Below are positions 8,017-48,427 of a stretch of 64,000 nucleotides of DNA, piece by piece. Position 1 is the first letter of the stretch; the number at the start of each line of letters is the position of its first letter. Origin of the DNA: an uncultured virus (IMG/VR IMGVR_UViG_3300028393_000047) (Duplodnaviria; Heunggongvirae; Uroviricota; Caudoviricetes); the IMG/VR virus record IMGVR_UViG_3300028393_000047; one strand, given 5' to 3'. A program made the translations under genes and the position numbers. The notes beneath the pieces were generated by a model, which saw only the letters and a program-made list of their open reading frames with translations, had not been told where the DNA came from and ran no database searches.

Positions 8017-9898
8017 TCTTAGCACTACTCTCAGCGAAGCGGTTTCTGTTGCAACGTCTGTAGCATATACAAGACAAGAGATACAAAAACTTAAAACAGA
8101 GTTAGTATCTCTTTTAGAAAAGAAAACAACAGAAGTAATCGTTGAACAAGTTCCTGGTCCTGTTGGTCCACGTGGATCTCTTGGCGCAACTGGCGCACAA
8201 GGTTCTAAGGGTGACAAAGGAGATAAGGGAGATGCGGGTGAGCGTGGTGATAAAGGCGAAGTTGGACCCCAAGGAAACATGGGGCATGATGGACCACGTG
8301 GATTAAAAGGTGATAAGGGAGACAAGGGCGAACAAGGTGATGTTGGTCTTCAAGGTGAACAAGGCATACAAGGTATTACTGGTGATCGTGGCGACAAAGG
8401 CGAGAAAGGTGATAGGGGCGCAGATGGAAAAAATGGTCTGGACGGAAGAGATGGACAAACAGGCGCAGTTGGTCCGATTGGACCAGTTGGTCCGCAAGGA
8501 ATTCAAGGTGAACGAGGACTTAAGGGCGACAAAGGCGAACGAGGAAAAGACGGACAACAAGGACTCGCAGGACCAACAGGATCACAAGGTGAAATTGGAC
8601 CACAGGGCGTTCAAGGCATTGCAGGTAAGGATGGTAAAGACGGAGACATAAAACCTGTTGAAGAGAAGTTTCAAAAGTTTATTGATAATGTTCAGAGAGA
8701 TGTTAACGCATTTAAAACAAGAGTCAATGCAGTAATTATTAAATCTGGTGGACAGCACGGAGGTTCAACTGGTTCTGGTGAAGTCAATTTAAGATACTTG
8801 GATGACGTTGATAGAGATAGTATCACAGATGGTTATGTTTTATCTTACAATCAAGCATCACAGAAGTTTGTATTCGTAGAACAATCTGGTGGCGGTGGAG
8901 GTACCGTAGATACCGTAGCAAGAACAAGATCAACATCCGCTTGGTACACAGCAAACTTAGCATATTCACAAGCCAACAGCGCATTCTCTACCTCAAATAA
9001 TTCATACACACAATCAAATTCTGCATTAAGTATTGCACAGTCAGCATTTGCAAAAGCCAATACTGGTGGTGCCGCTGGCACAGATAATCTTGCACGTTCT
9101 ATTGCAAATAGTTCATTTTCTACAGCAAACTCAGCACTTAGCATTGCACAATCTGCGTTTGCACAAGCAAATACTGGAGGTGGAGGAGTTGGATATGACC
9201 AAAATCTTAATACATCAAACACAGTTTCTTTTGTTGGATTAACTGTAGCAGGAAATACAATAGTTCAACATGTTATTCCTTCAGCAAACATCACATATGA
9301 TTTAGGAGCGCCAACTTCTAGATTCAGAGATTTATATTTAAGTGGAAGCAGTATTAATTTAGGTGGTGCTTCAATTAAAGCAGATGTTGTTACCGGAGCA
9401 ATTGCAATAATTCCGCAGCCAACTGTAGAAAATCCAAACCCAACAGGTGTTGTTGTGTCGCCTACAGGAACTATAGGTACGGTATCTACCACCGGTGGCA
9501 CCTTAACTGCAAATGCGATTAGCAATTCGTCTAATACAGCAGTTACAGCTGGAGGTGCAACAGAATCATTAAATGTTAAATTTAGCAATAGTACCGGTGA
9601 TGCGTATAAAGTTGTTGCTTTGAATTCTACAGCCAATACTGTTTTGGCTTCAGCATTAGATATAGCACAAGTAGATAAAGTTTTAGGAGTTTTGGACGTT
9701 TCAGGAGAGACAGTAACTTTTGGTTCAATAACTAATCCATCGTGGACTTGGACAGCAGAACAATCTTTATATCTTGGAAGTAATGGTAATATTGTGGCAA
9801 CATCAACAATCAATGGTGCATCATTTTCATTGAAACTTGGATACGCTATATCGGCAACAAAAGCATTTATAAAAATCGGAACACCAATCGTATTATAA
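7997..9898 (+). CDS. Collagen-like fibre protein
   Basis: 55 consecutive Gly-X-Y triplets, then ANSAF-type repeats and a beta-rich C-terminus; likely GTG start at 7997 after GAGG (ORF track starts at 7982). Confidence 0.85.
   Translation: MTKKETNLSTTLSEAVSVATSVAYTRQEIQKLKTELVSLLEKKTTEVIVEQVPGPVGPRGSLGATGAQGSKGDKGDKGDAGERGDKGEVGPQGNMGHDGPRGLKGDKGDKGEQGDVGLQGEQGIQGITGDRGDKGEKGDRGADGKNGLDGRDGQTGAVGPIGPVGPQGIQGERGLKGDKGERGKDGQQGLAGPTGSQGEIGPQGVQGIAGKDGKDGDIKPVEEKFQKFIDNVQRDVNAFKTRVNAVIIKSGGQHGGSTGSGEVNLRYLDDVDRDSITDGYVLSYNQASQKFVFVEQSGGGGGTVDTVARTRSTSAWYTANLAYSQANSAFSTSNNSYTQSNSALSIAQSAFAKANTGGAAGTDNLARSIANSSFSTANSALSIAQSAFAQANTGGGGVGYDQNLNTSNTVSFVGLTVAGNTIVQHVIPSANITYDLGAPTSRFRDLYLSGSSINLGGASIKADVVTGAIAIIPQPTVENPNPTGVVVSPTGTIGTVSTTGGTLTANAISNSSNTAVTAGGATESLNVKFSNSTGDAYKVVALNSTANTVLASALDIAQVDKVLGVLDVSGETVTFGSITNPSWTWTAEQSLYLGSNGNIVATSTINGASFSLKLGYAISATKAFIKIGTPIVL
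8156..8650 (+). repeat. Collagen Gly-X-Y repeat region
   Basis: GPV-GPR-GSL...GKD-GKD-GDI, uninterrupted. Confidence 0.95.
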
Positions 9899-19648: not shown

Positions 19649-20714
19649 TACGCACTTTGGTGTTAGAAATGACTCCAAAGCGTTTCATGCTTACTATGAA
19701 AAATTTTATGATGAAACATTCTTTCCAAAATTAGAAGAGCATGGCGTAAGAACAATCATTCAACTTGGTGATTTGTTTGACAGACGAAAGTATATTAACT
19801 TTCTTTCGCTGATGGAAAGTCGTAGATACTTTTTTGATAGATGCGTTGAAGAAGGCATTACTGTTCACGCATTGATTGGCAATCACGATATCTTCTGGAA
19901 AGAAAGTTTAGAAGTTAATTCACCAGACTTGTTGTTGAGAGACTATCACAATATTGTTCTATGGCAGAAACCAGGAACACTTGAAGTTGATGGAATCAAA
20001 ATTGATATGATACCATGGATTTGCAAAAGCAATGAAGCAGAAGTTTTTGAGTTTGTAAAGAACACATCTTCTCCATTGTGCATGGGACACTTTGAACTCG
20101 CTGGTTTTCCATTGTTCCGTGGTGTAGATAGCCATGAAGGACTTGACTATAAGTTTCTAAACAATTATAATCATGTATACAGCGGACACTATCATACGCC
20201 ATCACAGCACGACAACATCACATATGTTGGTGCACCATATGAATTGTTTTGGAATGACTACAAAGATAAAAAACAATTTGGCATCTTAGATACTGAAACA
20301 ATGAAGACAACATTCTTAGAGAATCCTCACAGAATGTTTTACAAAGTAAATTATGACGATAACAATAGCACAGACAAATTAAAAATTGAAGACTTAAAGA
20401 AACTTGATTTCAGTAAATATGCAAATGCTTATGTGAAAGTCATTGTTGCTAATAAACAAGACCCATATTTGTTTGAGAAACTTATAGATGAAATTTATAA
20501 AGTTGGTCCAGTTGATGTGACAATTGTTGAAGACTTTACAGAATTGAATGAAGAGACAACTGAAAAAGATATTATTGACCAAGCGCAAGATACTATGACA
20601 ATTCTTTCTACATTCATTGATGCACAAAGCCTAAATATTTCTGATACAAATAAACTTAAAACATTGATGCGTGAACTTTATGTTGAGGCACTATCCACAG
20701 AAAACATTGAATGA
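19626..20714 (+). CDS. gp47: Recombination endonuclease gp47 (Mre11/SbcD-like)
   Basis: GDTHFG, LGDLFD, GNHD, GHFE, SGHYH metallophosphoesterase motifs. Confidence 0.95.
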   Translation: MRICLLGDTHFGVRNDSKAFHAYYEKFYDETFFPKLEEHGVRTIIQLGDLFDRRKYINFLSLMESRRYFFDRCVEEGITVHALIGNHDIFWKESLEVNSPDLLLRDYHNIVLWQKPGTLEVDGIKIDMIPWICKSNEAEVFEFVKNTSSPLCMGHFELAGFPLFRGVDSHEGLDYKFLNNYNHVYSGHYHTPSQHDNITYVGAPYELFWNDYKDKKQFGILDTETMKTTFLENPHRMFYKVNYDDNNSTDKLKIEDLKKLDFSKYANAYVKVIVANKQDPYLFEKLIDEIYKVGPVDVTIVEDFTELNEETTEKDIIDQAQDTMTILSTFIDAQSLNISDTNKLKTLMRELYVEALSTENIE

Positions 20715-22423
20715 TAATTTTTCGTAATTTAAGATGGAAGAACCTTCTATCTACAGGTAACTTTTTTACTGAACTGAACTTAGATAGCAACAATACTACA
20801 TTGATTGTTGGCGCTAATGGTTCAGGTAAGTCTACGATGCTTGACGCATTGTGCTTTGTGCTGTTTGGTAAACCATTTCGCAATATTAACAAAGGGCAAC
20901 TTGTTAATACGATCAATCAAAAAGATTGCGTTGCCGAAATTGAATTTGACACAGGCAACAAGACATACAAAATTGTTCGTGGTATCAAACCAAATATCTT
21001 TGAGATTTATTGTAATGGGCATCTAGTCAATCAAGATGCCGCAGTCAAAGACTATCAGGAACATCTAGAGAAATTCATTCTCAAACTCAACTATAAATCA
21101 TTTACTCAAATCGTTCTATTGGGTTCAGCATCATTTACTCCATTCATGCAATTGTCTGCAAGCGATAGACGTTCTATCATTGAAGACTTGTTAGACATTC
21201 AAATCTTCTCTCGCATGAATAGCGCACTTAAAGATAAGTTTTTGTTGTTGAAAGAAAAACATTCTCAAACAAAATACGCAGTTGATTTGAAGAGTGAAAA
21301 GATACAATATCAAATTCAATTTATTGATTCGTTAAACAAAAGTAATGCCGCACAACTTTCATCTAAGCAACAAGACATTGCTAACACTCAACATTTAGTT
21401 ATAGAGAGTGAAACTAACTGTACAACGTTACGTCAAAGTTTGTCTGATTTGTGTACACAGATTTCAGACAAAGATAAAGTTGATGGAAAGATAACAAAAT
21501 TCTCAGGCATCAAACTCAATCTAGGTAAAACACTTAAGAAAGTTAATACTGACATTTCATTCTATCACGACAACAATGATTGCCCAACATGTAAGCAGAC
21601 AATCGGTGATGAATACAAATCACACATCATTGAAGAGCGATCTAAAAAACTTGAAGAAGTTGATATCGCATTGAAAAAAGTTGATGAAGAGATTGATACA
21701 CTTAATGTTAGATGTGATGAGATTGAAAAGATTGTAGGACAAATTCAAACGTTGAATTCACAATTGACATTTGAACAGAGCGAGATTAAAGCCAATCGTA
21801 GATACATTGAAAGTCTTGAAAAAGAAATTGAACGATTGTCGTTAGTCAAAGATGACCTGCAAACTGAACAAACAAAACTTGAAACATTGAATCAAGAACT
21901 TGCTGAATTGGAATCTGAGATTAAAGTTATTTCTGAAGAACGTTTGTATTATGAGATTGCAACGAACTTATTAAAAGATACCGGTATCAAAACGAAAATT
22001 ATTCGTCAATACATACCAGTCATCAACAAGTTAGTTAACAAGTATCTTGCATCATTAGATTTCTTTGTGAACTTTAATTTAGATGAGTCATTCAAAGAAA
22101 CAATCAAGTCTCGCCATCGTGATGATTTCACATATGCATCATTCAGCGAAGGTGAAAAGCAACGTATTGATATGGCATTGATGTTGACTTGGCGTGCTGT
22201 TGCCAAGTTGAAGAATTCAGCAAGTACAAACATATTGATACTTGACGAAATCTTTGATTCATCATTAGATACAAATGGTACAGAAGATTTGATGAAAATT
22301 CTAAACATGCTTGAAGGATCAAACCTGTTTGTCATATCACACAAAGGTGATATTCTGCAAGACAAGTTTGCCAACGTGATTAGATTTGAAAAAGTAAATA
22401 ATTTCTCAAGGATAACAAAATGA
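20711..22423 (+). CDS. gp46: Recombination ATPase gp46 (Rad50/SbcC-like)
   Basis: GANGSGKS, CPTC hook, SFSEGE signature, LILDE. Confidence 0.96.
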   Translation: MIIFRNLRWKNLLSTGNFFTELNLDSNNTTLIVGANGSGKSTMLDALCFVLFGKPFRNINKGQLVNTINQKDCVAEIEFDTGNKTYKIVRGIKPNIFEIYCNGHLVNQDAAVKDYQEHLEKFILKLNYKSFTQIVLLGSASFTPFMQLSASDRRSIIEDLLDIQIFSRMNSALKDKFLLLKEKHSQTKYAVDLKSEKIQYQIQFIDSLNKSNAAQLSSKQQDIANTQHLVIESETNCTTLRQSLSDLCTQISDKDKVDGKITKFSGIKLNLGKTLKKVNTDISFYHDNNDCPTCKQTIGDEYKSHIIEERSKKLEEVDIALKKVDEEIDTLNVRCDEIEKIVGQIQTLNSQLTFEQSEIKANRRYIESLEKEIERLSLVKDDLQTEQTKLETLNQELAELESEIKVISEERLYYEIATNLLKDTGIKTKIIRQYIPVINKLVNKYLASLDFFVNFNLDESFKETIKSRHRDDFTYASFSEGEKQRIDMALMLTWRAVAKLKNSASTNILILDEIFDSSLDTNGTEDLMKILNMLEGSNLFVISHKGDILQDKFANVIRFEKVNNFSRITK

Positions 22424-22926
22424 TTGAATTGAATTTAGTTTCGGAAACATCACCCGTTCTTTTGCAAGAATGTAAAGAGTTTGATTTTAATAACCCACCA
22501 TTTGATCCAAAAGAGTTTGCACAAGCATTGCATGATAAGATGATTAAGAATGATGGACTTGGATTGTCAGCTAATCAAGTTGGGCAACCATATCGTGTTT
22601 TTGTTATGAGAACTAGTGAGAAACCATATGCAGTATTTAATCCAAAAATAGTTGATGTATCAGATAAAGAACTGACAATGAAAGAAGGATGTTTAAGTTT
22701 TCCTCTATTGTATCTAAACGTTAAACGTCCAGACTCAATACGTATTCGTTTTCAAGATGAGACAGGTGAAACAAGAACTGAAAAGTTTATTGGCATGACT
22801 GCACGAATTGCATTGCACGAATTTGACCATATGCTTGGAAAAGTATATACTCAAAAGGCATCATCATTTGAAACACAACGTGCTATACGCAAACGCATGA
22901 TTTTAAAACGTAAGGTAAAAAAATGA
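22420..22926 (+). CDS. def: Peptide deformylase
   Basis: GLGLSANQVG, EGCLS, HEFDH. Confidence 0.93.
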   Translation: MIELNLVSETSPVLLQECKEFDFNNPPFDPKEFAQALHDKMIKNDGLGLSANQVGQPYRVFVMRTSEKPYAVFNPKIVDVSDKELTMKEGCLSFPLLYLNVKRPDSIRIRFQDETGETRTEKFIGMTARIALHEFDHMLGKVYTQKASSFETQRAIRKRMILKRKVKK

Positions 22927-24035
22927 AACCTTGGCAACATGGATATGACATAGATTATCTCAAAGGGCTTGAGGCACAGTATGCAGACTACAATGCATAT
23001 ACATTATCTCCTTTCGCAAAGTATAAGAAGAACAACATTGCAGAGTCTTTGAAAAAAGGTAATCTTATTTTTAGTGAATTTGGTCTTGAACCTTCAATGT
23101 TTGAAGTTACGAATAGTAAAGTTGCATCAGATATTACAATGCATGGAGACACAGTTATTGCAACAAAAGTAAAAGGTGATGTTTCAATCGGAAAACTTTC
23201 AGGCAATATTAATACGATTAAGCATCAAATTTCTTTATTGTCAGGAAACAATTTTTGGTTAACTGTATGGGCAGAAAACAAAGCACATTGTGACTTAGCT
23301 GAAGAGTTGGGTTTCTGTTATGTTGGTCCTAAGATTACAACATACGGAGAAGTACATGCAATTTACTTTAAGAGTAACAGTCCTATTCCACGTTCATTTC
23401 CTAAAGTTGAATCAACAGAATATCTAAGCATCAAAAAGATTGGTGCAATCACATCAGAATTTATTGAATCTGTTTCTGCTAAGTTAGCAACGTTACCAGC
23501 ATTCACAAATCATTATAGTAACTACAACAAAGATAAAGCATGGTCTGCATTGTCACTACGTGGCTATCGTCCAGAATCAGACTTCATTACAAAGCCTTCA
23601 GAGATGAGTGATGACTGGAAAGAAAAAAACAAAGACATAAAATTTGAATTGCAAGACACACCACTCTATGATATGTTTCCTGAAGTGCGTGAGTTGTTGA
23701 GTAAATATAAACAAGTGCATCGTGTTCGTTTCATGCAATTGAAACCTGGCGGTGGAGAACTTGAACGACATACCGATCAAGTAGATAAAGACTCTGGTGG
23801 TTCTAAAGGCAAACTTGCAAGACTACACATACCAATCATTACTAATCCAAACATGATTTTTACTGTGTGGGATCCAAAAGGCAATCCACAAAAGGTACAT
23901 ATGGATGTTGGAGACTTGTGGTTTCTAGATACACGTAAGCCACATCAAGCTATCAACAATGGAACTGAAAATAGAATTCACTTAGTCATAGATGCAATCT
24001 CGGAAGGAGACCTGTATGAGTCGCTTGTATCCTGA
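22923..24035 (+). CDS. GNAT-like N-domain fused to AspH-family 2OG-Fe(II) oxygenase
   Basis: WLTVWAENKAHCDLAEELGFCYVG resembles GNAT motif B; C-domain has HTD, RLHIPIITN, H(QAIN), RIHLVID. Confidence 0.75.
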   Translation: MKPWQHGYDIDYLKGLEAQYADYNAYTLSPFAKYKKNNIAESLKKGNLIFSEFGLEPSMFEVTNSKVASDITMHGDTVIATKVKGDVSIGKLSGNINTIKHQISLLSGNNFWLTVWAENKAHCDLAEELGFCYVGPKITTYGEVHAIYFKSNSPIPRSFPKVESTEYLSIKKIGAITSEFIESVSAKLATLPAFTNHYSNYNKDKAWSALSLRGYRPESDFITKPSEMSDDWKEKNKDIKFELQDTPLYDMFPEVRELLSKYKQVHRVRFMQLKPGGGELERHTDQVDKDSGGSKGKLARLHIPIITNPNMIFTVWDPKGNPQKVHMDVGDLWFLDTRKPHQAINNGTENRIHLVIDAISEGDLYESLVS

Positions 24036-24780
24036 AGAATCTTATGATATAATACAAGGATGGAAAGACCCAAACCCTGCACCAATAGTTGAAATGCACC
24101 ATGGCTTTCATGTTGTGCGTGATGACTTGTTAGAGTATGGAAGCAAAAGTAGATTCATTGACCATCTTGTGAAAACTACTCAATGTGATGAATGGGTCTT
24201 TGGTGGTGCAAACAAAGTTGGTTGGGGTCCTATATCTTTAACATATGTGTGCAATCTGTATGGAAAAAAAGCAACGTTCTTCATGGCTAAACGCAAAGAG
24301 CCTACATGGCATCAACAAAGAGTGTTGGACCTTGGCGGCACTATTCATTGGGTTGACAATGGTATGCTTACTGTGACAAAAGCAAGAGCAAGACGATATC
24401 AAGAAGAAGATACAAAACGCAGACAATGCTTGCCTTTAGGATTAGAACATCCGTCTGTGCTTGCATCAATTGTTAAAGTCGCAACAGATTTGAAAATTAA
24501 ACCAACAGAGATTTGGACTGTTGCATCAAGTGGAACATTGAATCGTGGATTGCAATTAGCATTTCCTGATGTGCCTGCATATGCAGTAGAGATTGGACAT
24601 AAGATGAGTGACTATGAAAAAGGTCGTGCTATTACTATGCGTTCACCATATAAGTATGACCAAGCAATAGAAGAGGATCAAGCACCTCCATATCCATCTG
24701 AGAAGTACTACGATGCTAAACTTTGGCAGTTCGTAGTGAGTAGTGGGAAACCAGGCGCACTAATCTGGAATGTAGCGTAA
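24016..24780 (+). CDS. Fold-type II PLP enzyme (ACC deaminase/D-cysteine desulfhydrase-like)
   Basis: VRDDLLEYGSKSR (Schiff-base Lys position), VASSGT phosphate loop, YDAK; ATG at 24016 after GGAG. Confidence 0.75.
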   Translation: MSRLYPEESYDIIQGWKDPNPAPIVEMHHGFHVVRDDLLEYGSKSRFIDHLVKTTQCDEWVFGGANKVGWGPISLTYVCNLYGKKATFFMAKRKEPTWHQQRVLDLGGTIHWVDNGMLTVTKARARRYQEEDTKRRQCLPLGLEHPSVLASIVKVATDLKIKPTEIWTVASSGTLNRGLQLAFPDVPAYAVEIGHKMSDYEKGRAITMRSPYKYDQAIEEDQAPPYPSEKYYDAKLWQFVVSSGKPGALIWNVA

Positions 24781-24802
24781 CAAATATTCAAAGGAAACGA
24801 AC

Positions 24803-25057
24803 ATGAGTAACGAAGAAGATAAATTCAAAAAATCTAAACGAATCCTTAAAGACGAAAATGCAATACGAAAACAATTAAAAATTGCTAAAGCATATAATAT
24901 ATCAGTTGAGTCTCCTCATCAATTAGCTAAACATCATGTACTAGATTGCGGAAATCCAAATTGTGTGATGTGTGCAAATCCTAGAAAAGTCTGGAAAGAA
25001 AAAACAATTCAAGAAAGACGTTTTGAACAAACTGAAAAATACGAAGACAATGATTAA
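24803..25057 (+). CDS. Small hypothetical protein with a possible Zn-binding motif
   Basis: HH...CGNPNCVMCANPR. Confidence 0.6.
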   Translation: MSNEEDKFKKSKRILKDENAIRKQLKIAKAYNISVESPHQLAKHHVLDCGNPNCVMCANPRKVWKEKTIQERRFEQTEKYEDND

Positions 25058-25514
25058 AGAAAAATATCTAGGCGCATACATGAAGACTGCAAAAGTCTTT
25101 GCCGAATTGAGTAGCGCAAAAAGAAAACATGTTGGTGCTGTCATTGTAAAAGATGACAGGATCATTTCAATCGGCTACAATGGTATGCCAAGCGGATGGG
25201 ATAATAATTGTGAGGACATGTTTATTACCCAAGAAGAAATTTCTCCTGGTGTTTTTTCTTTGACAAAAAAAACAGAACTCAAAACAAAATCCGAAGTTCT
25301 CCATGCAGAGTCTAACGCAATCGCAAAACTTGCTAAGTCTACCGAGAGTGGTGATGGTGCAAGTATGTTTATCACTTGCGCCCCATGCATGGACTGTGCT
25401 AAAATGATATTTCAAAGCGGAATTAAAGAAGTCTTCTATGGTGAAGATTATCGTGATGACACAGGAATCAGTTTCCTAAATAAATGCGGAATAACAGTAA
25501 AACAAATAATATGA
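25050..25514 (+). CDS. cd: dCMP deaminase
   Basis: VGAVIV, GYNG, HAESNA, PCMDC. Confidence 0.92.
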   Translation: MIKEKYLGAYMKTAKVFAELSSAKRKHVGAVIVKDDRIISIGYNGMPSGWDNNCEDMFITQEEISPGVFSLTKKTELKTKSEVLHAESNAIAKLAKSTESGDGASMFITCAPCMDCAKMIFQSGIKEVFYGEDYRDDTGISFLNKCGITVKQII

Positions 25515-27085
25515 CAAAACATTTTTATGAACGTAACGATTGGTTATTGAACCACGAAACAAACAAGACATTTGAAGAAGTGCAATGGATGACTGAAGAC
25601 GAATTTCGTCAATGGTTCATTGATTTGCGTAAAGCAGTTGTACACTCATGGGACACTATGGGTCAACCCCCTAGAGTTGGTTGGGATGAAGGTGCGATCA
25701 AAAAACAATTCAAAGAGATGTATGGATTCTCTGTGCATGAATTTGAACATGTTGATGAATTGACTGGTGAAAAAGATGTAATCAGAAATACTAGCGTAGT
25801 CGGCAATGCGGCTAATCAATGGTTCCCAACCATGATGAAAACACGCATTAACTACTCTAAGAATGACGATGGGCTTTCAATCTATGACCACTTTCTAAAA
25901 GATGAATTACTTGAGAAGACATTGAAGTATTCCAAACGACACTTCAAGCGTGATTCATTCTATGCATATTCAAATACAGTTAAAGTCAATGAGATTATTT
26001 CTGTTGGTTCTTATAATGTAAAATTTAAGAATGGCAATGACTTTGTTCGTTGGTTTGAAGACAATAACATTCGTCAATATGGTTATGACTATTGGGTAGA
26101 GAGTCGTGATGATGACGAAGAGTATAGTGGTTACAATGAACAACTCAAAGGCGTAAAGTATCTTGAAGTGACGCAAGATATTCTAGAGACAATTCCAACT
26201 AAGTCTACAATGAACATAAAGTCACATGACCAAAAGAAGTATCGTCTGCGTATGTACAAGTATGGACAAAAGATTTTTCCTGTCGGCTTGAAAGCATTCC
26301 GAGTATCGTGGTGCCAATATGCTGTTAACTTTCCACCATTGACTGCAAAACTTCTTTATGAAAAATTTACTAGACACGTTAAGAACCAAGATAGAATTGT
26401 TGTTTACGATCCCTCTTCTGGTTGGGGTGGGCGTATCTTGGGTGCTATGGCTTCTCGCACTTCTATTCCTTTACACTATGTGGGTACTGATCCTAATACC
26501 GATCACACTATTGGTGGGGATGGCGTCACTCCTAGTACTAAATATGCCGATTTGGCTGAGTTCTATAACTCCGCAAAGAACGAAGGAGTTTTGTTCGAAC
26601 AGTCCAATACTTATGAAATTTTTCAACTTGGTTCTGAAGTTGTCCGAGATGATAGTTCGTTCCAAAAGTACAAGGGCGAATTAGACATGGTGTTCACTAG
26701 CCCTCCTTACTTTGCTAAGGAAGCGTATAGCGAAGACCCAACGCAATCGTATAAAAAGTTTACTGGCTATGATGCATGGCGTGAAGGTTTCTTGCGACCA
26801 ACGTTAGAAACTGCTGTTGAGTATTTGCGTAATGACAGATACTTACTTTGGAATATTGCTGACGCTAAATTTGGTGCTGACATGTTGCCACTTGAAAAAG
26901 ATAGCAAAGACATTTTGGAATCACTCGGTATGCAATTCAAAGGTGTAGTCAAAATGGCACTAGCACAAATGCCAGGTGGCAATCGTATTGATCCTGACAC
27001 TGGTTTGCCGAAAGCAAAGAATTTTTGCAAGGTGAACGGGATGTGGTTGAAGTATGAACCGATTTTTGTTTTTTACAAGCCGTAA
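25511..27085 (+). CDS. Large SAM-dependent amino-(N4C/N6A)-methyltransferase-fold protein
   Basis: YDPSSGWGGR (motif I-like), GTDPN, FTSPPYF (motif IV); about 290-aa N-terminal region of unknown function. Confidence 0.75.
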   Translation: MTKHFYERNDWLLNHETNKTFEEVQWMTEDEFRQWFIDLRKAVVHSWDTMGQPPRVGWDEGAIKKQFKEMYGFSVHEFEHVDELTGEKDVIRNTSVVGNAANQWFPTMMKTRINYSKNDDGLSIYDHFLKDELLEKTLKYSKRHFKRDSFYAYSNTVKVNEIISVGSYNVKFKNGNDFVRWFEDNNIRQYGYDYWVESRDDDEEYSGYNEQLKGVKYLEVTQDILETIPTKSTMNIKSHDQKKYRLRMYKYGQKIFPVGLKAFRVSWCQYAVNFPPLTAKLLYEKFTRHVKNQDRIVVYDPSSGWGGRILGAMASRTSIPLHYVGTDPNTDHTIGGDGVTPSTKYADLAEFYNSAKNEGVLFEQSNTYEIFQLGSEVVRDDSSFQKYKGELDMVFTSPPYFAKEAYSEDPTQSYKKFTGYDAWREGFLRPTLETAVEYLRNDRYLLWNIADAKFGADMLPLEKDSKDILESLGMQFKGVVKMALAQMPGGNRIDPDTGLPKAKNFCKVNGMWLKYEPIFVFYKP

Positions 27086-35337: not shown

Positions 35338-35775
35338 ATGGAAGAACTAGTACAATCATTAAAAGTAGTTTTGGCAAATCATTACGCATTTTATTTGAAG
35401 GCACATTACTATCATTGGAACATAACTGGTCCTAACTTTCCTCAGTATCACGAATTCTTAGAAAACATTTATACTGAAGTTTACGGCGTTGTGGATAAAA
35501 TTGCAGAAGAAATTCGTTCATTGGATTCATATGCACCAGGAAGTTTTAATCGATTTATTCAGTTATCACAAATTCAAGGTGATGAAACTGTGTCACCAGC
35601 AGAAGTAATGTTACAAAGATTATCAGAAGACATTCCAGTAATGTTAGCAAGCATTGAACGTGCATACGAACTTGCCGAACAAAATCATGCACACAACATA
35701 AGTAATTTTATGGCTGATCGCCAAGATGCATTTGGTAAACACGCATGGATGATTAGGTCAACCTTAAAGGCTTGA
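35338..35775 (+). CDS. dps: Dps ferritin-like protein
   Basis: KAHYYHWNITGPNFPQYHEFL, DKIAEEIR, KHAWM. Confidence 0.92.
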   Translation: MEELVQSLKVVLANHYAFYLKAHYYHWNITGPNFPQYHEFLENIYTEVYGVVDKIAEEIRSLDSYAPGSFNRFIQLSQIQGDETVSPAEVMLQRLSEDIPVMLASIERAYELAEQNHAHNISNFMADRQDAFGKHAWMIRSTLKA

Positions 35776-36494: not shown

Positions 36495-36998
36495 ATGGGA
36501 CACACACCATTACCCACTATCTTTGGTGGAACAGGTTTTAAAGATTTTGACAAATTCTTTGTCGGCTTTGATGACCAATTTAATCGCATGGCAAAGATGC
36601 ATGACGATTTAACTAAAAACATTCCAAACTACCCACCTTACAACATTCGCAAGACTGGTGACAACACTTATGTCATTGAAATTGCTGTTGCTGGTTTTGG
36701 TAAACAAGAAATCGATATCACATTAGAAGCCAATAAACTTATTGTTTCTGGTAATACACAAGACGATAACGATAATTTCTTGTTCAAAGGAATCGCCAAT
36801 CGTGCATTCACTCGCACATTTGCACTTGATGACCAAATCGAAATTCAAGATGCCGCTTTGATTAATGGCATGTTGAAGATTGCTTTGGAACGAATCATTC
36901 CAGAACACAAGAAGCCAAAGAAGATTGAAGTTAAGGATGCTGAATCTAAAACTAAAAAAACTTCTAAAGAATATTTAACTGAGGATGATGTATTATGA
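36495..36998 (+). CDS. hsp20: Small heat-shock protein Hsp20 (IbpA-like)
   Basis: NYPPYNI, EIAVAGF, KGIANRAFTRTF, NGMLKIALERIIPE. Confidence 0.95.
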   Translation: MGHTPLPTIFGGTGFKDFDKFFVGFDDQFNRMAKMHDDLTKNIPNYPPYNIRKTGDNTYVIEIAVAGFGKQEIDITLEANKLIVSGNTQDDNDNFLFKGIANRAFTRTFALDDQIEIQDAALINGMLKIALERIIPEHKKPKKIEVKDAESKTKKTSKEYLTEDDVL

Positions 36999-37349: not shown

Positions 37350-37655
37350 ATGCAAAATGAACTTAGAATTTTAAAATTAAGCACTGGTGAAGAAATTGTT
37401 GGTAACATTACAGAACGTAATGGTGCTATATTTTCAATTGAAAACCCATGCTTACTTGCAATTGCAATGGGACCAAATGGCAAAGCAAGTCTTCAAATGC
37501 AACCTATGCTTATCTTCTCTGAACAAAAGAAGGTAGATATCAATCGTGCCAACGTAATCTATGATGTAACAGTTGCGCCCGAGATTGAAAACAAGTATAA
37601 TGAGATATACGGCTCAGGTATAGTTATGCCTAAGACACAATCTATTATTATTTAA
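37350..37655 (+). CDS. Conserved hypothetical protein (Sm-like)
   Basis: ILKLSTGEEIVG...YGSGIV; directly upstream of gp43. Confidence 0.65.
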   Translation: MQNELRILKLSTGEEIVGNITERNGAIFSIENPCLLAIAMGPNGKASLQMQPMLIFSEQKKVDINRANVIYDVTVAPEIENKYNEIYGSGIVMPKTQSIII

Positions 37656-40153
37656 TGAAATTTTACACACACTTCTCTAAACTCGGAAATCATATTCTTG
37701 TTCGTGGTTATAACAATGGCAAGAGATTCAATGATAAGATAGAATACAATCCAGTATTGTACGTATCTGCTAGTGGTAAAGACTCTGATTATAAAACACT
37801 AGACGGGCAAGCGGTTGCGCCTGTATCACAAGGCACCATGCGTGATGCTACTGAGTTTATGAAACGATATGAAGACGTTGACAACTTCAAAGTGTATGGC
37901 TCAACAAATTTCCCTTACGTTTATATCAATGAGGCGTATCCTGGTAAAGTAGATTATGATCCAGAACAAATTAAGATTGCAAATATTGACATTGAGGTTG
38001 GTTCTGAAAATGGTTTTCCTGAACCTGCGTCTGCGACTGAGCCAATTACAGCAATCACGTTTAAGATAGCTGGACACTTCTATGTGTTTGGCTGTGGTGA
38101 CTTTGAAACCAATCGTGATGACGTAACGTACATGAAGTGTCGTGATGAGAATAATCTTATCATGCGCTTCCTTGACATGTGGGAAGAAACATCTCCAGAC
38201 ATTGTAACTGGTTGGAACATTCAATTCTTTGATATTCCATATCTGAACAATCGTATCACAAAACTCATGGGCGACAATACTGCAAAACGTCTATCACCAT
38301 TTCGTAGAATCGGTGAACGTACAACTACGATCCATAACAAACAGCAAGTAGCATTTGACTTGGTGGGTATTGCTATTCTTGATTACATTGAACTATACAA
38401 GAAGTTTACATACTCACAACAAGAAAGTTTTAGTCTTAATCACATTGCGTATCTTGAACTTGGTGAAAAGAAATTAGACTACTCTGAAGTTGAAAGTCTG
38501 CATCAGTTGTACCGAACAAACTTTCAAAAGTTTATTGAGTATAACATCCATGACGTTGAACTTGTGGATCGTATTGATGCTAAGATGCAATTGATTGACA
38601 TGGCACTTGCACTTGCATATGATGCTAAAGTTAATTACACCGATGTGTTCACGCAAGTACGCATGTGGGATACTTTGATTCATAATGAATTGATTGAACA
38701 GAAGATTGTTGTTCCGCAGAATGTTCGTACACCAAAAGATGAACAGTATGCTGGCGCTTATGTAAAAGATCCAATTGTTGGTATGCATGAATGGGTTGTG
38801 TCGTTTGACTTGAACTCATTGTATCCACACTTGATTATGCAGTACAATGTTTCACCTGAAACAATTATTGAAGGTCGCCACACAAGTATCTCTATTGATA
38901 ATTTGCTGAACAGCGAATATCAAGCACAGGGTGAATATTGCATGGCAGCCAATGGGCATTACTTCAAGCGTGACAAGCAAGGCTTTCTGCCTGCTATGAT
39001 GCAACGCATGTATGATGATCGGTCATTGTACAAAAAGAAAATGATTGAGGCTCAAAAGGCTTACGAAAAAGAAACAGACAAAGAACGTAAACGTGAAATA
39101 ACAAATCAGATTTCAAAGTACAAGAACTTACAACTCGCAAAGAAAGTACAATTGAACTCCGCTTATGGCGCACTTGGTAATCAATACTTTAGGTTCTTTG
39201 ACATTCGCCAAGCAGAGGCAATTACTCTGTCTGGTCAACTAGCCATTCGATGGATTGAAATGAAGTTGAATGGTTATCTAAACAAACTATTGAAGACTAA
39301 GGATATTGATTATGTTATTGCGTCAGATACAGACTCGGTGTACGTCAATCTTGGTCCGCTGGTACATATGGTCTATGGATCGAAGAGTGAAACGAAAGTT
39401 GAAACGATTGTCGATTTCGTCAACAAAGCATGTACAGAAAAATTCGAACCATTCATCGACAAGTCGTACCAAGAACTAGCAGACTACATGAATGCATTCG
39501 ACCAGAAGATGCAGATGAAACGTGAAGTGATTGCCAACAAAGGCATCTGGACTGCAAAGAAGCGTTACATTCTAAACGTGTATGATTCTGAAGGTGTTCG
39601 ATTCGCAGAGCCAAAGCTAAAGATGATGGGCATCGAAGCTGTCAAGTCTTCCACACCAATGTCATGTAGAGATAAGATTAAAGAGTCTCTGAAGATTGTG
39701 ATGAATGGTAATGAAACAGACTTTCAATCTTTCGTTGAAGCATTCAAACAAGAATTCAAAACTCTTCCATTCGAAGACATTGCATTCCCACGTGGTGTTA
39801 GTGATCTATCTAAATACATGAGCAGTTCGGAACTATATTCAAAAGGCACACCTATGCATGTGCGTGGTGCGATAATGTTTAATACGTTTCTGAAAAAGTA
39901 TAAACTGACTAAGAAGTATCAGCTTATTCAGGATGGCGATAAGACTAAATTCTGTTACATGAAAGTTCCAAATCCCGTTCAAGAAAATGTATTTTCTATT
40001 CTGACAGTCTTACCAAAAGAGTTTGGCGTAGAAAAATATATCGACTACGATACGCAGTTTGATAAAGCATATCTTGAGCCATTAAAAACAATCGTAAACA
40101 CAATTGGTTGGAAGACAGAACGTGTTTCTTCATTGGAGAACTTTTTCACATGA
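37655..40153 (+). CDS. gp43: Family B DNA polymerase gp43
   Basis: DIEV exonuclease motif, SFDLNSLYP, KVQLNSAYG, SDTDS; single uninterrupted ORF. Confidence 0.98.
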   Translation: MKFYTHFSKLGNHILVRGYNNGKRFNDKIEYNPVLYVSASGKDSDYKTLDGQAVAPVSQGTMRDATEFMKRYEDVDNFKVYGSTNFPYVYINEAYPGKVDYDPEQIKIANIDIEVGSENGFPEPASATEPITAITFKIAGHFYVFGCGDFETNRDDVTYMKCRDENNLIMRFLDMWEETSPDIVTGWNIQFFDIPYLNNRITKLMGDNTAKRLSPFRRIGERTTTIHNKQQVAFDLVGIAILDYIELYKKFTYSQQESFSLNHIAYLELGEKKLDYSEVESLHQLYRTNFQKFIEYNIHDVELVDRIDAKMQLIDMALALAYDAKVNYTDVFTQVRMWDTLIHNELIEQKIVVPQNVRTPKDEQYAGAYVKDPIVGMHEWVVSFDLNSLYPHLIMQYNVSPETIIEGRHTSISIDNLLNSEYQAQGEYCMAANGHYFKRDKQGFLPAMMQRMYDDRSLYKKKMIEAQKAYEKETDKERKREITNQISKYKNLQLAKKVQLNSAYGALGNQYFRFFDIRQAEAITLSGQLAIRWIEMKLNGYLNKLLKTKDIDYVIASDTDSVYVNLGPLVHMVYGSKSETKVETIVDFVNKACTEKFEPFIDKSYQELADYMNAFDQKMQMKREVIANKGIWTAKKRYILNVYDSEGVRFAEPKLKMMGIEAVKSSTPMSCRDKIKESLKIVMNGNETDFQSFVEAFKQEFKTLPFEDIAFPRGVSDLSKYMSSSELYSKGTPMHVRGAIMFNTFLKKYKLTKKYQLIQDGDKTKFCYMKVPNPVQENVFSILTVLPKEFGVEKYIDYDTQFDKAYLEPLKTIVNTIGWKTERVSSLENFFT

Positions 40154-41605: not shown

Positions 41606-42679
41606 ATGAGTAATTTTTTTACAGATTTAGTTGAGCAATTGAAAGATGATGACACAAAGATTCTTTCTGATGGTGGCGCATCGGCAGAGTTTAGTGGTAG
41701 CATTGACACTGGCTCTTATGCACTTAATGCACTACTGAGTGGTAGCATCTATGGTGGTGTACCAAACAACAAAGTGACAGCATTTGCTGGCGAGTCTTCA
41801 ACGGGTAAGACTTTCTTTGTGCTTGGTGTTATCAAACAATTTCTTGATGCAAATCCTGATGGCGGTGTTATCTACTTTGACACCGAAGCGGCAGTCACAA
41901 AGTCTATGATGGACAGTCGTGGTGTAGACACTAAACGAGTTGTTATCTCTGAACCAGATACGATTCAAAAGTTTCGTCATACTGCATTGCAAATCATTGA
42001 AAAGTATCAAGCACAAAAAGAATCAGCACGTAAGCCAATGATGATGGTTCTCGATTCTCTTGGTCAGTTATCTTCTACAAAAGAAATGGAAGATACTGCT
42101 GAAGGCAAAGAAACAAAAGACATGACTAAGAGTGCAATTCTCAAAGCGACATTTCGTGTGTTAAATTTGAAACTTGCTAAGATTGGTGTGCCTTTGATCG
42201 TAACAAATCACGTTTATGATGTTGTTGGTTCATATGTGCCAATGAAAGAAATGTCTGGTGGTTCTGGTTTGAAGTACACAGCATCTACAATCGTATATCT
42301 GTCTAAGAAGAAAGACAAAGATGGTACTGAAGTTATCGGTAACATTGTTAAAGCAAAATTGCACAAGAGCCGTTTAACAAAAGAAAATAAATTTGTTGAA
42401 ATCAAAATCACATACAGCAAAGGCTTAGATCGTTATTACGGATTGCTTGACATTGCAGAAAAGTATGGCATTATTAAGAAAGTGTCTACGCAATACGTAT
42501 TGTCGAATGGTGTGAAAGTCTTTGGTAAGAACATTAATGCTGAACCAGAAAAGTATTTCACTAAAGAAATTCTAGACTTGATCGATGAAGCATGTAAAAA
42601 AGAATTCATGTACGGACAAGATGCAGTTGAGGGTGTTGTTGATGATGAAGTAGAATTGGAGTTAGCAAATGAAGATTGA
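41606..42679 (+). CDS. uvsX: RecA-like recombinase UvsX
   Basis: [28 protein letters not shown]. Confidence 0.95.
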
Positions 42680-45446: not shown

Positions 45447-46094
45447 GTGAAATCTATATCATTGTTTGTTAATCATCCAGAATGCTCTACGGATTGTTGT
45501 GATGGAATGATTAAAGCATTATCGTCAAATTACAAGATTAATTTATTCAATACAGATAGTGATTTACTGACAGTTTTGAACAATACAGATATTGTTGCAT
45601 TTCCTGGAGGTATCGGAGATGCAGATTCTTATGATAAATTCTTTAGACGCAAACGTGCTAATATGATAGCAGATTTTGTTGAATCTAAAGGATATTATCT
45701 CGGAATATGTATGGGTGCATATTGGGCTGGCAGTCACTATTTTGATATACTAGATGATATTGAACCTGTTCAGTATATTAAACAAAATACAGCAGATATT
45801 CGTAGATCATATTCTACTGTAGCAAATGTTACTTGGAACGGCAAACCTGAAACGTTGTTTTTTTACGATGGATGTGCATTGACAGGCAATCTAGAACGTG
45901 CTAAAATAGTATCTACTTATGCGAATGGTGACGCTATGGCAATCATTCAAAATCGTGTGGGTGTGATTGGTTGTCATCCTGAGAGTCAGAAGTATTGGTA
46001 TGAAAAGCCTAGAGGGTATATATCAAAACATTGGCACGAAGAACGAAACCATAAATTATTGTTAAACTTTGTTGACGAACTTACATCATGTTAA
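45447..46094 (+). CDS. BPL_N / class I glutamine-amidotransferase-like protein
   Basis: FPGG, YLGICMGAY nucleophile elbow, GCHPE. Confidence 0.8.
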   Translation: MKSISLFVNHPECSTDCCDGMIKALSSNYKINLFNTDSDLLTVLNNTDIVAFPGGIGDADSYDKFFRRKRANMIADFVESKGYYLGICMGAYWAGSHYFDILDDIEPVQYIKQNTADIRRSYSTVANVTWNGKPETLFFYDGCALTGNLERAKIVSTYANGDAMAIIQNRVGVIGCHPESQKYWYEKPRGYISKHWHEERNHKLLLNFVDELTSC

Positions 46095-46426
46095 TTTACA
46101 CATATCAAAAATCAAAGAAGAAAAAAACTCCTGCAAAGAAAGTTGCAGAGTATGAAACTTGGCTAAAGAATCTTCCGACAACTTCATTTTCTAAAGGTTT
46201 CAAAAAGCCTAAGATAGTAGAAGCATACAAACCCCCAAAAGCAAACATTCGTGAAACTCCCAACTATCCCAGTTTAGCTACAGTTGGCGACAATTGCACT
46301 AAGCCTGTTTATGGAAAAGTTTACACTGGTGACAAGATGATTGGCATCGGCACGTTGCACAAAAGCAATGCAGTTCCTATTTTTTCTAATGATGACGCAA
46401 AAGATCAAGCATTGATGCGAAGATAA
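46088..46426 (+). CDS. Conserved hypothetical protein
   Basis: YTG...IGTLHKSNAVPIF. Confidence 0.65.
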   Translation: MLIYTYQKSKKKKTPAKKVAEYETWLKNLPTTSFSKGFKKPKIVEAYKPPKANIRETPNYPSLATVGDNCTKPVYGKVYTGDKMIGIGTLHKSNAVPIFSNDDAKDQALMRR

Positions 46427-46427
46427 T

Positions 46428-46435
46428 TATAAATA
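46428..46435 (+). promoter_or_regulatory. Late promoter TATAAATA
   Basis: Exact consensus 25 nt before the 46461 ATG. Confidence 0.75.
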
Positions 46436-46460
46436 GGTCTATTGCAACGACAGACCTATT

Positions 46461-48135: not shown

Positions 48136-48427
48136 GATCATAGACTTGTTACGAGAAGAAAACAATCCAAACATTTCACTACGAACGTTTGTTGTGGGTG
48201 GTGGATGTTCTGGATTCAATTACGGATTTACAATGGACGAAGTTAAGAATGATGATGATTTTGAATTTCCTCTAGACGAATTTAGAGTTTTAATTGATGC
48301 AATGAGTATGCAATATTTACAAGATGCAAACATAGACTACAAAGATGAGTTTATGCGAAAAGAATTTGTAATTACTAATCCAAATGCAAAACACACTTGC
48401 GGTTGTGGCAGTAGTTTTAGTGTATAA
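48104..48427 (+). CDS. erpA: A-type Fe-S carrier (ErpA/IscA family)
   Basis: GGGCSGFNYGF...NPNA...CGCGSSF. Confidence 0.88.
   Translation: MITITDVAKSKIIDLLREENNPNISLRTFVVGGGCSGFNYGFTMDEVKNDDDFEFPLDEFRVLIDAMSMQYLQDANIDYKDEFMRKEFVITNPNAKHTCGCGSSFSV

Follow-up and report, generated by a model that had tools for sequence, protein, structure and literature searches.

A candidate DNA base-tailoring module centred on an SPPY amino-methyltransferase-fold enzyme in a T4-like phage

The genes behind gp46 in the uncultured T4-like phage IMGVR_UViG_3300028393_000047 raise the question of what an SPPY amino-methyltransferase-like protein, a PLP enzyme and an oxygenase might make together, and on which substrate. 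The window analysed here is a stretch of 64,000 nucleotides of this phage, whose complete genome measures 150 kb. An initial annotation had described a run of five genes at 22923-27085 and proposed it as an undescribed operon for DNA base hypermodification. All five ORFs (5/5) were found in that place on the + strand (Table 1). The start of the upstream peptide deformylase gene (PDF) overlaps the gp46 stop, the OXY start overlaps the PDF stop (ATGA), and the likely MT start, M10, overlaps the DCD stop, again as ATGA.

Table 1. Positions of the genes and predicted domains discussed in the text.
Feature	Position	Strand	Length	Description
PDF	22420..22926	+		Peptide deformylase, upstream neighbour
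OXY	22923..24035	+	370 aa	GNAT-fold + AspH-type Fe(II)/2OG oxygenase
OXY, GNAT-fold domain	about 22947-23387	+	aa 9-155	Predicted model
OXY, C-terminal oxygenase domain	about 23409-24026	+	aa 163-368	Predicted model
PLP	23992..24780	+	262 aa	Short fold-type-II PLP protein; likely start M9 = 24016
CYS	24803..25057	+	84 aa	Cys-rich protein
DCD	25050..25514 (ORF start 24972/25050)	+		dCMP deaminase
MT	25484..27085	+	533 aa	SPPY amino-methyltransferase-like; likely start M10 = 25511
gp43	37655-40153			
UvsX	41606-42679			

Fusions gave the most direct indication of which genes belong together. Among 24 long homologues of PLP, 11 were single polypeptides of the form MT-OXY-PLP and 10 of the form MT-PLP, the domains following the order MT, OXY, PLP without exception; one fusion is the RefSeq protein WP_281721641.1 of Nitrosomonas nitrosa. 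Erythrobacter phage R6L gp1 combines ParB, MT motif I, a PALP domain and an SCPPY motif IV, its PLP domain being inserted inside the ParB-fused methyltransferase, while in Mae-JY30 ParB, MT and PALP are adjacent genes. Gene neighbourhoods pointed the same way: 80 PLP-anchored viral loci were fetched, of which 7 were too short, and MT lay <=2.6 kb from PLP in 71 of the 73 informative loci. Unrelated phages and mobile elements of bacteria preserve the linkage. These comparisons support the proposal that MT, OXY and PLP form one functional unit, with MT as its anchor. On the other hand, the idea of an obligate trio did not hold, as MT alone, MT+OXY, MT+PLP and MT+OXY+PLP were all seen among the loci. 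In 23 dereplicated phage lineages MT occurred without either partner in 4 and with OXY as only partner in another 4 (4/23 each), it was also found without partners in bacterial genomes, and no column of the MT alignment separated the 11 lineages having PLP from the 11 lacking it. MT is the constant member and OXY and PLP are gained and lost across its tree, as tailoring enzymes do. We found no description of an MT-PLP-OXY module in the literature, in line with the view that it is undescribed.

The remaining genes of the run behaved differently. Of 58 loci from relatives, 22 had CYS, a match to a family of unknown function (phrog_4499, E 1.9e-8), in the interval from gp46 to MT, and these 22 all came from close relatives. 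DCD (Pfam dCMP_cyt_deam_1, E 6.6e-22; phrog_174, E 1e-50) occupied this interval in 30 of the 58 and was placed several kb off in others, e.g. L032 and L036. Both had been taken for operon members and turn out to be variable neighbours, DCD being an ordinary neighbour from nucleotide metabolism. PDF (Pfam Pep_deformylase, E 4.9e-37) was missing from several relatives' loci that retain OXY-PLP-MT, and is context outside the module. The whole interval from gp46 to cobT/cobS is variable, PDF, CYS, DCD and further inserts coming and going.

OXY matched Pfam Asp_Arg_Hydrox (PF05118) with E 9.4e-13 and 48.7 bits, above the cut-off of 22.6, and its structure was predicted with a pLDDT of 90.6. In VIA-align comparisons the N-terminal domain resembled the GNAT acetyltransferase 2pc1 (Z 12.9, rmsd 3.4, 141 aligned), followed by 2fia (Z 11.4) and NAA60 (Z 10.9), whereas the C-terminal domain resembled L-proline cis-4-hydroxylase 4p7x (Z 15.6) and AspH (Z 15.0). 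Residues H283, D285, H341 and R351 were invariant in 19 sequences, and the oxygenase site, with its H283-x-D285...H341 triad and R351 kept, is intact. G85 and D86 of the GNAT-like domain were invariant in the same number of sequences (n=19); no Pfam or NCBIfam GNAT model matched this domain, and inspection by eye revealed no usual acetyl-CoA loop motif. The fusion of a GNAT-like domain to an AspH-type hydroxylase, as first annotated, is nevertheless confirmed at the level of fold by the confident model. A second PF05118 gene is present elsewhere in the same genome, and 2OG oxygenases are numerous in T4-like aquatic phages.

PLP matched Pfam PALP weakly (E 0.009), and phrog_7093 with E 4.9e-30 across aa 35-262, the same family that M6 gp52 matches with 2.2e-159; its profile also matched fold-II PLP enzymes in the PDB, which bears out its earlier assignment to this fold. 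BLASTP aligned PLP with M6 gp52 at 23% identity (E 4e-9), K52 falling on K36 of gp52, the putative aldimine lysine, and S180, G181, Y240, D241, K243, W259 and N260 being invariant. Judged from these alignments, PLP is homologous to the DNA-side-chain decarboxylases of the M6 gp52 class, and because the identity is just 23% its reaction may differ from that of gp52. Both purified enzymes, M6 gp52 and ViI gp226, act as decarboxylases on base-linked amino acids in DNA, and this decarboxylation requires a free alpha-amine (PMC8989533).

The motifs reported for a protein of ~525 aa were located in MT, DPSSGWGGR as motif I at residues 309-317 and SPPY as motif IV at 406-409. Ahead of the Rossmann catalytic domain, which carries D336, MT has a conserved region of unknown fold at its N-terminus (aa about 10-285). 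Across 34 diverse homologues D309, G313, G316, R317, S406 and Y409 were invariant. E413, Y415 and Q421 after motif IV are invariant too, and the active site (D309, G313, G316, D336, S406-P-P-Y409) is intact. MT itself matched Pfam N6_N4_Mtase (PF01555) weakly (E 0.0013, 19.2 bits, under the cut-off of 26.7); 30 of the 34 family members matched this model, with a best E of 2.8e-10, and none of the 34 matched any RNA-MTase family. The PADLOC type II MTase model was matched with E 1.4e-6. The predicted structure (pLDDT 90.7) found its best fold matches in Trm11, TrmN, Trm14 and METTL5 (Z 14-16), the scores being 15.9 for aTrm11, 15.4 for TrmN, 14.3 for METTL5, 13.4 for PrmC and about 13 for generic methyltransferases. 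Homologues fell into 3232 representative clusters at E<=1e-3, and those from bacteria are neighbours of type III and type IIG R-M genes in islands that carry an integrase. Profile comparison by hhalign related MT to the Mae-JY30 MTase with Prob 96% and to R6L gp1 with Prob 93%, and all three carry the extended motif IV PPYxxxExYSxDP, which marks the two ParB-associated methyltransferases as specific relatives of MT. No known acp transferase was detectably related to MT.

A route through 5-hydroxymethyl-pyrimidines is lacking. The interval between gp43 and UvsX, where no T4-type gp42 had been noticed, gave no Pfam match at all, and the absence of the T4 hmC route extends to the whole genome together with that of the 5-hmU route: the complete 150-kb sequence contained no ThyA/hydroxymethylase-family (PF00303) or ThyX match, no homologue of M6 gp51 or gp54, and no dUMP hydroxymethylase, 5-hmdU kinase or amino-acid:DNA transferase.

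Taken together, these results suggest that MT, PLP and OXY are a post-replicative modification module that probably equips DNA bases with a side chain not described so far. DNA as the target of MT is favoured by the PF01555 and PADLOC matches, the ParB links and the R-M-bearing islands; ParB recurs in phage DNA-hypermodification clusters (PMC13229309). As to the chemistry, our reading is tentative and its chance falls somewhat short of even: MT would transfer SAM's amino-acid portion to an exocyclic amine of the base, and the product would be tailored by PLP and OXY. In this scheme MT would bind SAM and a flipped-out base and alkylate its exocyclic amine; the Ser of motif IV makes cytosine N4 a likelier site than adenine N6. 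The group transferred would be 3-amino-3-carboxypropyl (acp) rather than methyl, with release of methylthioadenosine. We propose acp as the donated group because MT+PLP pairs and fusions occur without any other amino-acid donor; to our knowledge, it is the only amino-acid-bearing group of SAM that an MTase-fold enzyme can donate, and its transfer is established for TYW2-type enzymes. PLP would then link to the substituent's free alpha-amine through a Schiff base and decarboxylate the substituent to a 3-aminopropyl side chain, whereupon the oxygenase of OXY would hydroxylate a side-chain carbon and its GNAT-fold domain bind or acylate the amine. The scheme would end in a base that is both bulky and charged and may block host nucleases.

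Several other explanations have to be weighed. That unrelated auxiliary metabolic genes merely met by chance between gp46 and cobT/cobS would agree with the variability of this interval and with the abundance of 2OG oxygenases in such phages, the second PF05118 gene included, but it is close to refuted by the triple and double fusions, the insertion of the PLP domain within R6L gp1, the nearness of MT in 71/73 loci and the linkage across unrelated phages and mobile elements. A more serious objection is that MT could be an ordinary N4-cytosine/N6-adenine DNA methyltransferase. PLP and OXY would then receive their amino-acid substrate from another source, and the fusions would reflect co-targeting to DNA rather than a common substrate. 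Such methyltransferases are recognised by SPPY together with standard SAM-binding motifs, and where MT stands alone, in phages and bacteria, plain methylation is the simplest reading and counts against the acp proposal. The amino acid might then be installed from aminoacyl-tRNA or acyl-CoA by the GNAT-fold domain of OXY in the manner of Mom, a GNAT-fold enzyme which places glycine from Gly-tRNA on adenine N6 of dsDNA (PMC13219725). However, the GNAT-like domain showed no sequence relation to Mom (hhalign Prob 0.2%), and the MT-PLP fusions, R6L, Mae-JY30 and loci L163-L166 have no GNAT-OXY protein and no other candidate amino-acid-installing enzyme, therefore PLP would be left there without a substrate donor. 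PLP might instead clear the inhibitory by-product SAH; we know of no fold-II PLP enzyme that degrades SAH. We regard an ordinary methyltransferase as unlikely.

Because the best folds of MT are those of tRNA, rRNA and protein amino-methyltransferases, the module could also act on tRNA, rRNA or a protein amide (cf. Trm11, METTL5, PrmC), or turn SAM or an amino acid into a small molecule; we give this a low probability. It follows the translation-linked PDF gene, AspH and proline-hydroxylase relatives have proteins or free amino acids as substrates, and acp and its hydroxylation are known from wybutosine synthesis in tRNA. Against it, ParB domains are fused or adjacent, the Pfam and PADLOC matches of MT are to DNA methylases only, several loci retain the module without PDF, and PLP relatives act on DNA (PMC8989533). 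Generic methyltransferases score not far below the best match (Z about 13 vs 15.9), and the ranking may be biased because the common PF01555 DNA N4/N6 methylases are circularly permuted. Improbable, finally, is the acp scheme with its steps reversed, in which PLP would make decarboxylated SAM and MT, like a spermidine synthase, would move aminopropyl to the base amine, giving the same end product. Aminopropyl transferases do have the class I MTase fold, PLP sits in a decarboxylase family, SAM carries the free alpha-amine needed for PLP chemistry, and SpeD (PF02675) was not found in the genome; phages with MT only could use host decarboxylated SAM, and this would account for MT being unchanged with or without PLP. 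On the other hand, a cofactor with a carboxylate would fit the invariant motif I residue R317, OXY-only partners (4/23 lineages) are easier to explain with a carboxylated side chain, and for the proven PLP relatives the substrate is attached to DNA and is not a free amino acid (PMC8989533).

The acp proposal can be set beside known systems. In wybutosine synthesis TYW2, of MTase fold, transfers acp, TYW5 performs a 2OG-dependent hydroxylation and the amine is then modified, an order that the proposed scheme would share. The likeness would be one of pathway logic. In the phage, DNA would be modified instead of tRNA, and we know of no PLP decarboxylation step in wybutosine synthesis. With Mom of phage Mu the module would share a GNAT-fold protein in exocyclic base amine modification of phage DNA and an amino acid placed on the base (PMC13219725). 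The GNAT-fold domain here differs in being fused to an oxygenase, dispensable in MT+PLP forms and encoded beside an MTase-fold enzyme. To the ParB-fused and orphan phage N4/N6 MTases, the R6L and Mae-JY30 enzymes in particular, MT is close in its motif I, acidic motif II residue, (S/C)PPY motif IV and PF01555 and PADLOC MTase_II matches. It departs from them in its conserved N-terminal 280-aa region, in E413, Y415 and Q421, and in its linkage or fusion to PLP and oxygenase domains that methyl transfer would not need; unlike the PF01555 model, it is unpermuted, motif I preceding IV. The thymidine hypermodification pathways of M6 and ViI use a 5-hmdU DNA kinase, an amino-acid:DNA transferase and the PLP decarboxylase gp52/gp226 (Lee et al., NAR 2021/22, PMC8989533), and, as described there, have no AspH-type Fe(II)/2OG oxygenase partner. 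In the window phage, which lacks their hydroxymethylase, kinase and transferase, the proposed installing enzyme is of SPPY type, therefore attachment would be to the exocyclic amine of C or A, not to pyrimidine C5, and the side chain would derive from SAM instead of a free amino acid. The PLP enzymes of both belong to phrog_7093, with the putative aldimine lysine and C-terminal motifs conserved. The logic would likewise be common to both: an amino-acid-bearing side chain on a DNA base is tailored after replication, by tailoring enzymes, acetyltransferases among them, that are shuffled combinatorially between phages.

The window forms part of a complete IMG/VR virus record of 150,107 bp with direct terminal repeats and carries the gene set of a T4-like myovirus, namely the gp15-gp23 structural genes, UvsY, UvsW, gp47/gp46, gp45, gp44/62, RegA, gp43, UvsX, gp41 and RNR. 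The open reading frames downstream of gp46, all on the + strand, overlap or almost abut one another, with ATGA-type overlaps at the gp46/PDF, PDF/OXY and DCD/MT junctions and a gap of 158 nt 3' of MT. The run at 22923-27085 that the initial annotation had read as a candidate five-gene hypermodification operon is confirmed as a set of ORFs, whose coordinates are collected in the table. M10 of MT is also the start in relatives and in the ESM Atlas record. A scan for promoters and terminators across the region showed no excess over chance (19 promoter-like sites where 19.1 were expected, and 3 terminator-like sites where 3.9 were expected), and at the nucleotide level none of 50,697 phage records gave a match to the region. 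By profile matches DCD is a standard dCMP deaminase and CYS, an 84-aa Cys-rich protein, belongs to a PHROG without an assigned function.

Positions in the window of gp46 and the ORFs that follow it
Feature	Position	Strand	Remark
gp46	20711-22423	+	upstream of gene run
Peptide deformylase (PDF)	22420-22926	+	first ORF after gp46
OXY	22923-24035	+	ORF
PLP	23992-24780	+	ORF
CYS	24803-25057	+	ORF
dCMP deaminase (DCD)	ends at 25514	+	ORF
MT	25484-27085	+	ORF; start at M10 = 25511 gives the DCD/MT ATGA junction

Elsewhere in the window, the gene at 8279-9898, flanked by those for the portal and the prohead protease, encodes 539 aa with collagen triple-helix repeats (E 3e-20). At 49599-52481 lies the gene of a 960-aa protein that is cytidylyltransferase-like at its N-terminus and also has a DUF5824 domain; after it come a 611-aa protein for which Pfam gave no match and, at 54332-54826, a 5' nucleotidase of NT5C type. 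The stretch 45507-47687, 18 kb away from the module, encodes 195 aa resembling class I glutamine amidotransferases and then a protein of 408 aa that matches DUF6267 (E 1.8e-105); PMC13229309 names amidotransferases as part of the thymidine-hypermodification machinery.

PLP, the 262-aa fold-II PLP protein, matched phrog_7093 with E 4.9e-30 (aa 35-262 over profile positions 14-278 of 279), and M6 gp52 matched the same profile with E 2.2e-159, so both belong to one family; the match of PLP to Pfam PALP was weak (E 0.009). The two proteins have C-terminal motifs in common and an overall identity of 23%. According to PMC8989533, M6 gp52 and ViI gp226 are PLP-dependent decarboxylases as purified proteins, act on amino acids already present on bases in DNA and require a free alpha-amine, and the predicted aldimine lysine of gp52 is K36. 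K52 of PLP aligns with this lysine and is invariant in 10 sequences; the PLP profile also matched fold-II PLP enzymes, K52 coinciding with the lysine in SFKIRG of serine dehydratase 1pwe. Single-sequence searches of the PDB with PLP and MT returned nothing useful.

OXY (370 aa) scored 48.7 bits against PF05118 (Asp_Arg_Hydrox; cut-off 22.6), and its predicted model (pLDDT 90.6) has two domains. In the model, residues 163-368 have a double-stranded beta-helix fold and resemble L-proline cis-4-hydroxylase 4p7x (Z 15.6, 177 aligned), AspH (Z 15.0) and proline 3-hydroxylase 1e5r (Z 14.6). H283, D285, H341 and R351 do not vary across 19 sequences; with roles taken from the 4p7x alignment, the first three would form the HxD...H iron triad and R351 would be the 2OG-binding arginine. 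The GNAT-like domain that had been proposed for OXY is borne out as a fold by the model, in which residues 9-155 are matched by 2pc1 (Z 12.9, rmsd 3.4, 141 aligned), 2fia (11.4), NAA60 (10.9) and SbzI (10.8), though neither Pfam nor NCBIfam gave a GNAT profile match. GNATs bind the acyl-CoA pyrophosphate through a loop with the motif Q/R-x-x-G-x-G/A, and inspection of the conserved sequence of OXY by eye did not find this loop. The NCBIfam search gave no meaningful matches, and PADLOC had no match for OXY, PLP, CYS or orf200. The same genome encodes, outside the window, a second AspH-type oxygenase as a short 179-aa frame (G000:C1:38708-38998, L168; PF05118 E 1e-13). Two proteins for the assembly of iron-sulfur clusters, one NifU-like (E 1.5e-52) and one of IscA type (E 1.1e-15), are encoded at window 47752-48427 and a ferritin-like protein at 35338-35775; they make up an iron-handling gene set, and the phage has no fewer than two Fe(II)/2OG oxygenases. 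An Hsp20 gene lies at 36495-36998.

MT is a 533-aa SPPY amino-methyltransferase-like protein of a large family (3232 representative clusters at E<=1e-3). Among 34 diverse homologues D309, G313, G316 and R317 of the predicted SAM-binding motif I (DPSSGWGGR, residues 309-317, of the D/E-x-F-x-G-x-G-like kind) and D336, the putative acidic ribose-binding residue, are invariant, as are S406 and Y409 of the predicted catalytic motif IV (SPPY, 406-409, of the form (S/D/N)PP(Y/F)), in which P407 and P408 are kept in at least 90%; E413, Y415 and Q421, directly after motif IV, are likewise invariant. MT itself scored 19.2 bits against PF01555 (DNA methylase), under the Pfam gathering cut-off of 26.7, and 30 of the 34 family members matched this family at E<=0.01 (best 2.8e-10), with no match to an RNA-methyltransferase family among the 34. 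The predicted model (pLDDT 90.7) has a Rossmann methyltransferase domain with Trm11, TrmN, Trm14, METTL5 and PrmC as best fold matches (Z 13-16), a ranking which may disfavour PF01555 enzymes because these are permuted, has a small margin over generic methyltransferases and, as a whole-protein search, scarcely probes aa 10-285. Foldseek against the PDB gave generic class I methyltransferases only, with low TM, and aa 10-285 matched only unnamed viral clusters in the ESM Atlas (scores <=0.85), with no structure there. TYW2, Tsr3 and DTW-domain families were absent among the matches of every search run; MT is proposed to work like a SAM acp transferase, by analogy, and not to be a member of such a family (acp being the 3-amino-3-carboxypropyl part of SAM).

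In 80 viral loci with MT at 58-100% identity, MT always lies between gp46/PDF and cobT/cobS. Among the 58 loci that include gp46, and hence show the whole gp46-MT interval, 34 have full OXY, PLP and MT, 10 have full OXY and MT, nine have only a short oxygenase with MT and five have MT alone. After four T4-like loci with PLP directly 5' of MT and without OXY, and four phage contigs from MAGs, had been added, dereplication at 90% MT identity reduced 66 loci to 23 lineages, of which ten carry OXY and PLP, four OXY only, four a short oxygenase only, four neither partner and one PLP only. The partners are scattered across the MT tree, and no column of the MT alignment separates the 11 lineages with PLP from the 11 without it. 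That PLP never occurs without OXY is true in the 58 loci and was ruled out by PLP and MT without OXY in L163-L166 and L221-L223. When 80 loci were anchored on PLP instead, MT was found within 2.6 kb downstream in 71, and seven were too short to tell; the viral loci L217 and L252 bear PLP without MT within 6 kb downstream, which may reflect a cassette inserted between the two genes.

Searching for longer PLP homologues gave 24 proteins, which HMMs built from our own alignments resolved into 11 MT-OXY-PLP and 10 MT-PLP single polypeptides, two OXY-PLP proteins (one probably a fragment) and one ParB type matching the PLP profile only. The order of domains is always MT, OXY, PLP, and the fused proteins are 1,080-1,190 aa long, with a triple fusion of 1,084 aa among them. 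One triple fusion is a RefSeq protein of Nitrosomonas nitrosa (WP_281721641.1); none was present in 101 sampled genomes from the family of one Nitrosomonas genome, and the triple fusion appears to be only sporadic in bacterial genomes. Unrelated phages show the link too. In Erythrobacter phage vB_EliS_R6L, gp1 carries a ParB domain, MT motif I, a PALP domain and an SCPPY motif IV, in that order, which places the PLP domain inside the methyltransferase. Microcystis phage Mae-JY30 encodes ParB, a 294-aa MT and a 236-aa PALP protein as consecutive genes. The MTs of these two phages are specifically related to the window MT (hhalign Prob 93% for R6L and 96% for Mae-JY30), and all three have the extended motif PPYxxxExYSxDP in common. 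Some longer MT homologues are of other kinds: the PALP domain of P0065 (829 aa) is closer to the canonical form (Pfam 2e-15) and was missed by the gp52-type HMM, P0102 (796 aa) has PALP at its N-terminus, and P0030, P0034, P0035, P0040 and P0047 (725-771 aa) have C-terminal extensions of ~200-240 aa with no family match, in which our own HMM found no gp52-type PLP domain.

Thus, combined together, the fusions and the co-location in relatives link MT, PLP and OXY, and we consider it very likely that a three-gene module exists. The proposed five-gene operon does not stand as such, since CYS and DCD, which occur in the gp46-MT interval of 22 and 30 of the 58 loci, respectively, with DCD several kb off in others, are neighbours only.

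The module probably acts on DNA. This is argued by its ParB fusions and ParB neighbours, by the Pfam and PADLOC DNA-methylase matches of MT, and by bacterial MT homologues in integrase-bearing islands near R-M or resolvase/ParB genes: the Limnohabitans homologue has a type III R-M system alongside, that of Devosia a type IIG-like methylase, and that of a Flavobacteriaceae genome resolvase/ParB genes and an adjacent PLP gene. Against a DNA target stands the predicted structure of MT, which by fold is best matched by amino-methyltransferases of RNA and protein. N4-cytosine enzymes typically have a serine in motif IV, as MT does, and therefore cytosine is the favoured base. A role of ParB is moreover documented for phage DNA-hypermodification clusters in PMC13229309, which again points to DNA. 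Directly 5' of the MT homologue, Devosia and Limnohabitans have a conserved ~345-aa ORF (L091 6959-7990; L099 6940-7992), a DUF3102 protein in Devosia and without Pfam match in Limnohabitans, near the R-M genes and integrase. In the Flavobacteriaceae MAG (L145 7728-9286) the PLP-adjacent MT, with integrase, resolvase and ParB nearby, is split into ORFs of 388 and 113 aa, a break that a frameshift, a stop or faulty assembly might explain.

The usual upstream machinery is missing. The initial annotation had noted that no gp42 lies between gp43 and uvsX; nothing was recognised there, and PF00303 (the ThyA family, including dCMP hydroxymethylase gp42) was not detected anywhere in the complete genome, control genomes being positive. 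ThyX was not found in the complete genome either, nor were homologues of M6 gp51 and gp54 with single-sequence queries. The MT and PLP fusions and pairs offer no other candidate amino-acid donor, and of the groups that SAM-dependent enzymes of the MTase fold can transfer, acp is to our knowledge the only one bearing an amino acid; TYW2 transfers it in tRNA. We therefore propose an acp pathway, in which MT would place acp on an exocyclic base amine, PLP would decarboxylate it to aminopropyl, the AspH-type oxygenase would hydroxylate the side chain and the GNAT-fold domain would bind or acylate the amine. Acp transfer is the best available inference for the mechanism, albeit a tentative one. The interpretation put forward initially is partly supported, as to the three-enzyme module and, with less assurance, its DNA target, and not as to the five-gene operon.

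The default alternative is that a lone SPPY enzyme is a plain methyltransferase, which agrees with the occurrence of MT alone in phages and bacteria and with the lack of any sequence difference tracking the partners. The order of reactions could also be reversed, PLP first making decarboxylated SAM and MT then acting as an aminopropyl transferase; this fits several of the facts equally well, SpeD being absent from the genome, and we nevertheless regard it as improbable. Finally, the GNAT-fold domain could be the installer of an amino acid, for which Mom is the precedent (PMC13219725); hhalign detected no sequence relation between Mu Mom and OXY (Prob 0.2%), though the two may still be kin at the fold level within the GNATs. 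The acp pathway as a whole, with acp set by the SPPY MT-fold enzyme on a C or A amine, trimmed to aminopropyl by PLP and hydroxylated or acylated by the GNAT-AspH protein, would be the first natural DNA modification drawn from the amino-acid half of SAM, a reading that is plausible, though less likely than not. A search of openly accessible full texts found no paper on a methyltransferase-PLP-oxygenase module or on acp or aminopropyl DNA bases in phages.

If true, the acp pathway would amount to a class of N-linked DNA hypermodifications not described before, carried by T4-like aquatic phages, by siphophages and by mobile elements of bacteria, and given the size of the MT family many "DNA methylases" annotated in phages and mobile elements may do something else. 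There would be consequences for restriction evasion, for methylomes called from sequencing data and for enzymes that label DNA at specific sites, and the fused proteins would give a single-gene handle on the pathway. The phage DNA hypermodifications known to us start from 5-hydroxymethyl-pyrimidines, 7-deazaguanines, 5-methylcytosine/carboxymethylcytosine or the glycyl transfer of Mom; an amino-methyltransferase-fold first step would add a new attachment point, the exocyclic amines, and a new donor, the SAM side chain. Decarboxylases of the M6 gp52/ViI gp226 type usually keep company with a 5-hmdU DNA kinase, an amino-acid:DNA transferase and a dUMP hydroxymethylase; none of these was found in the complete genome, where M6 gp51 and gp54 served as single-sequence queries. 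On the other hand, as in the thymidine pathways, where tailoring enzymes come and go, OXY and PLP come and go around a constant MT.
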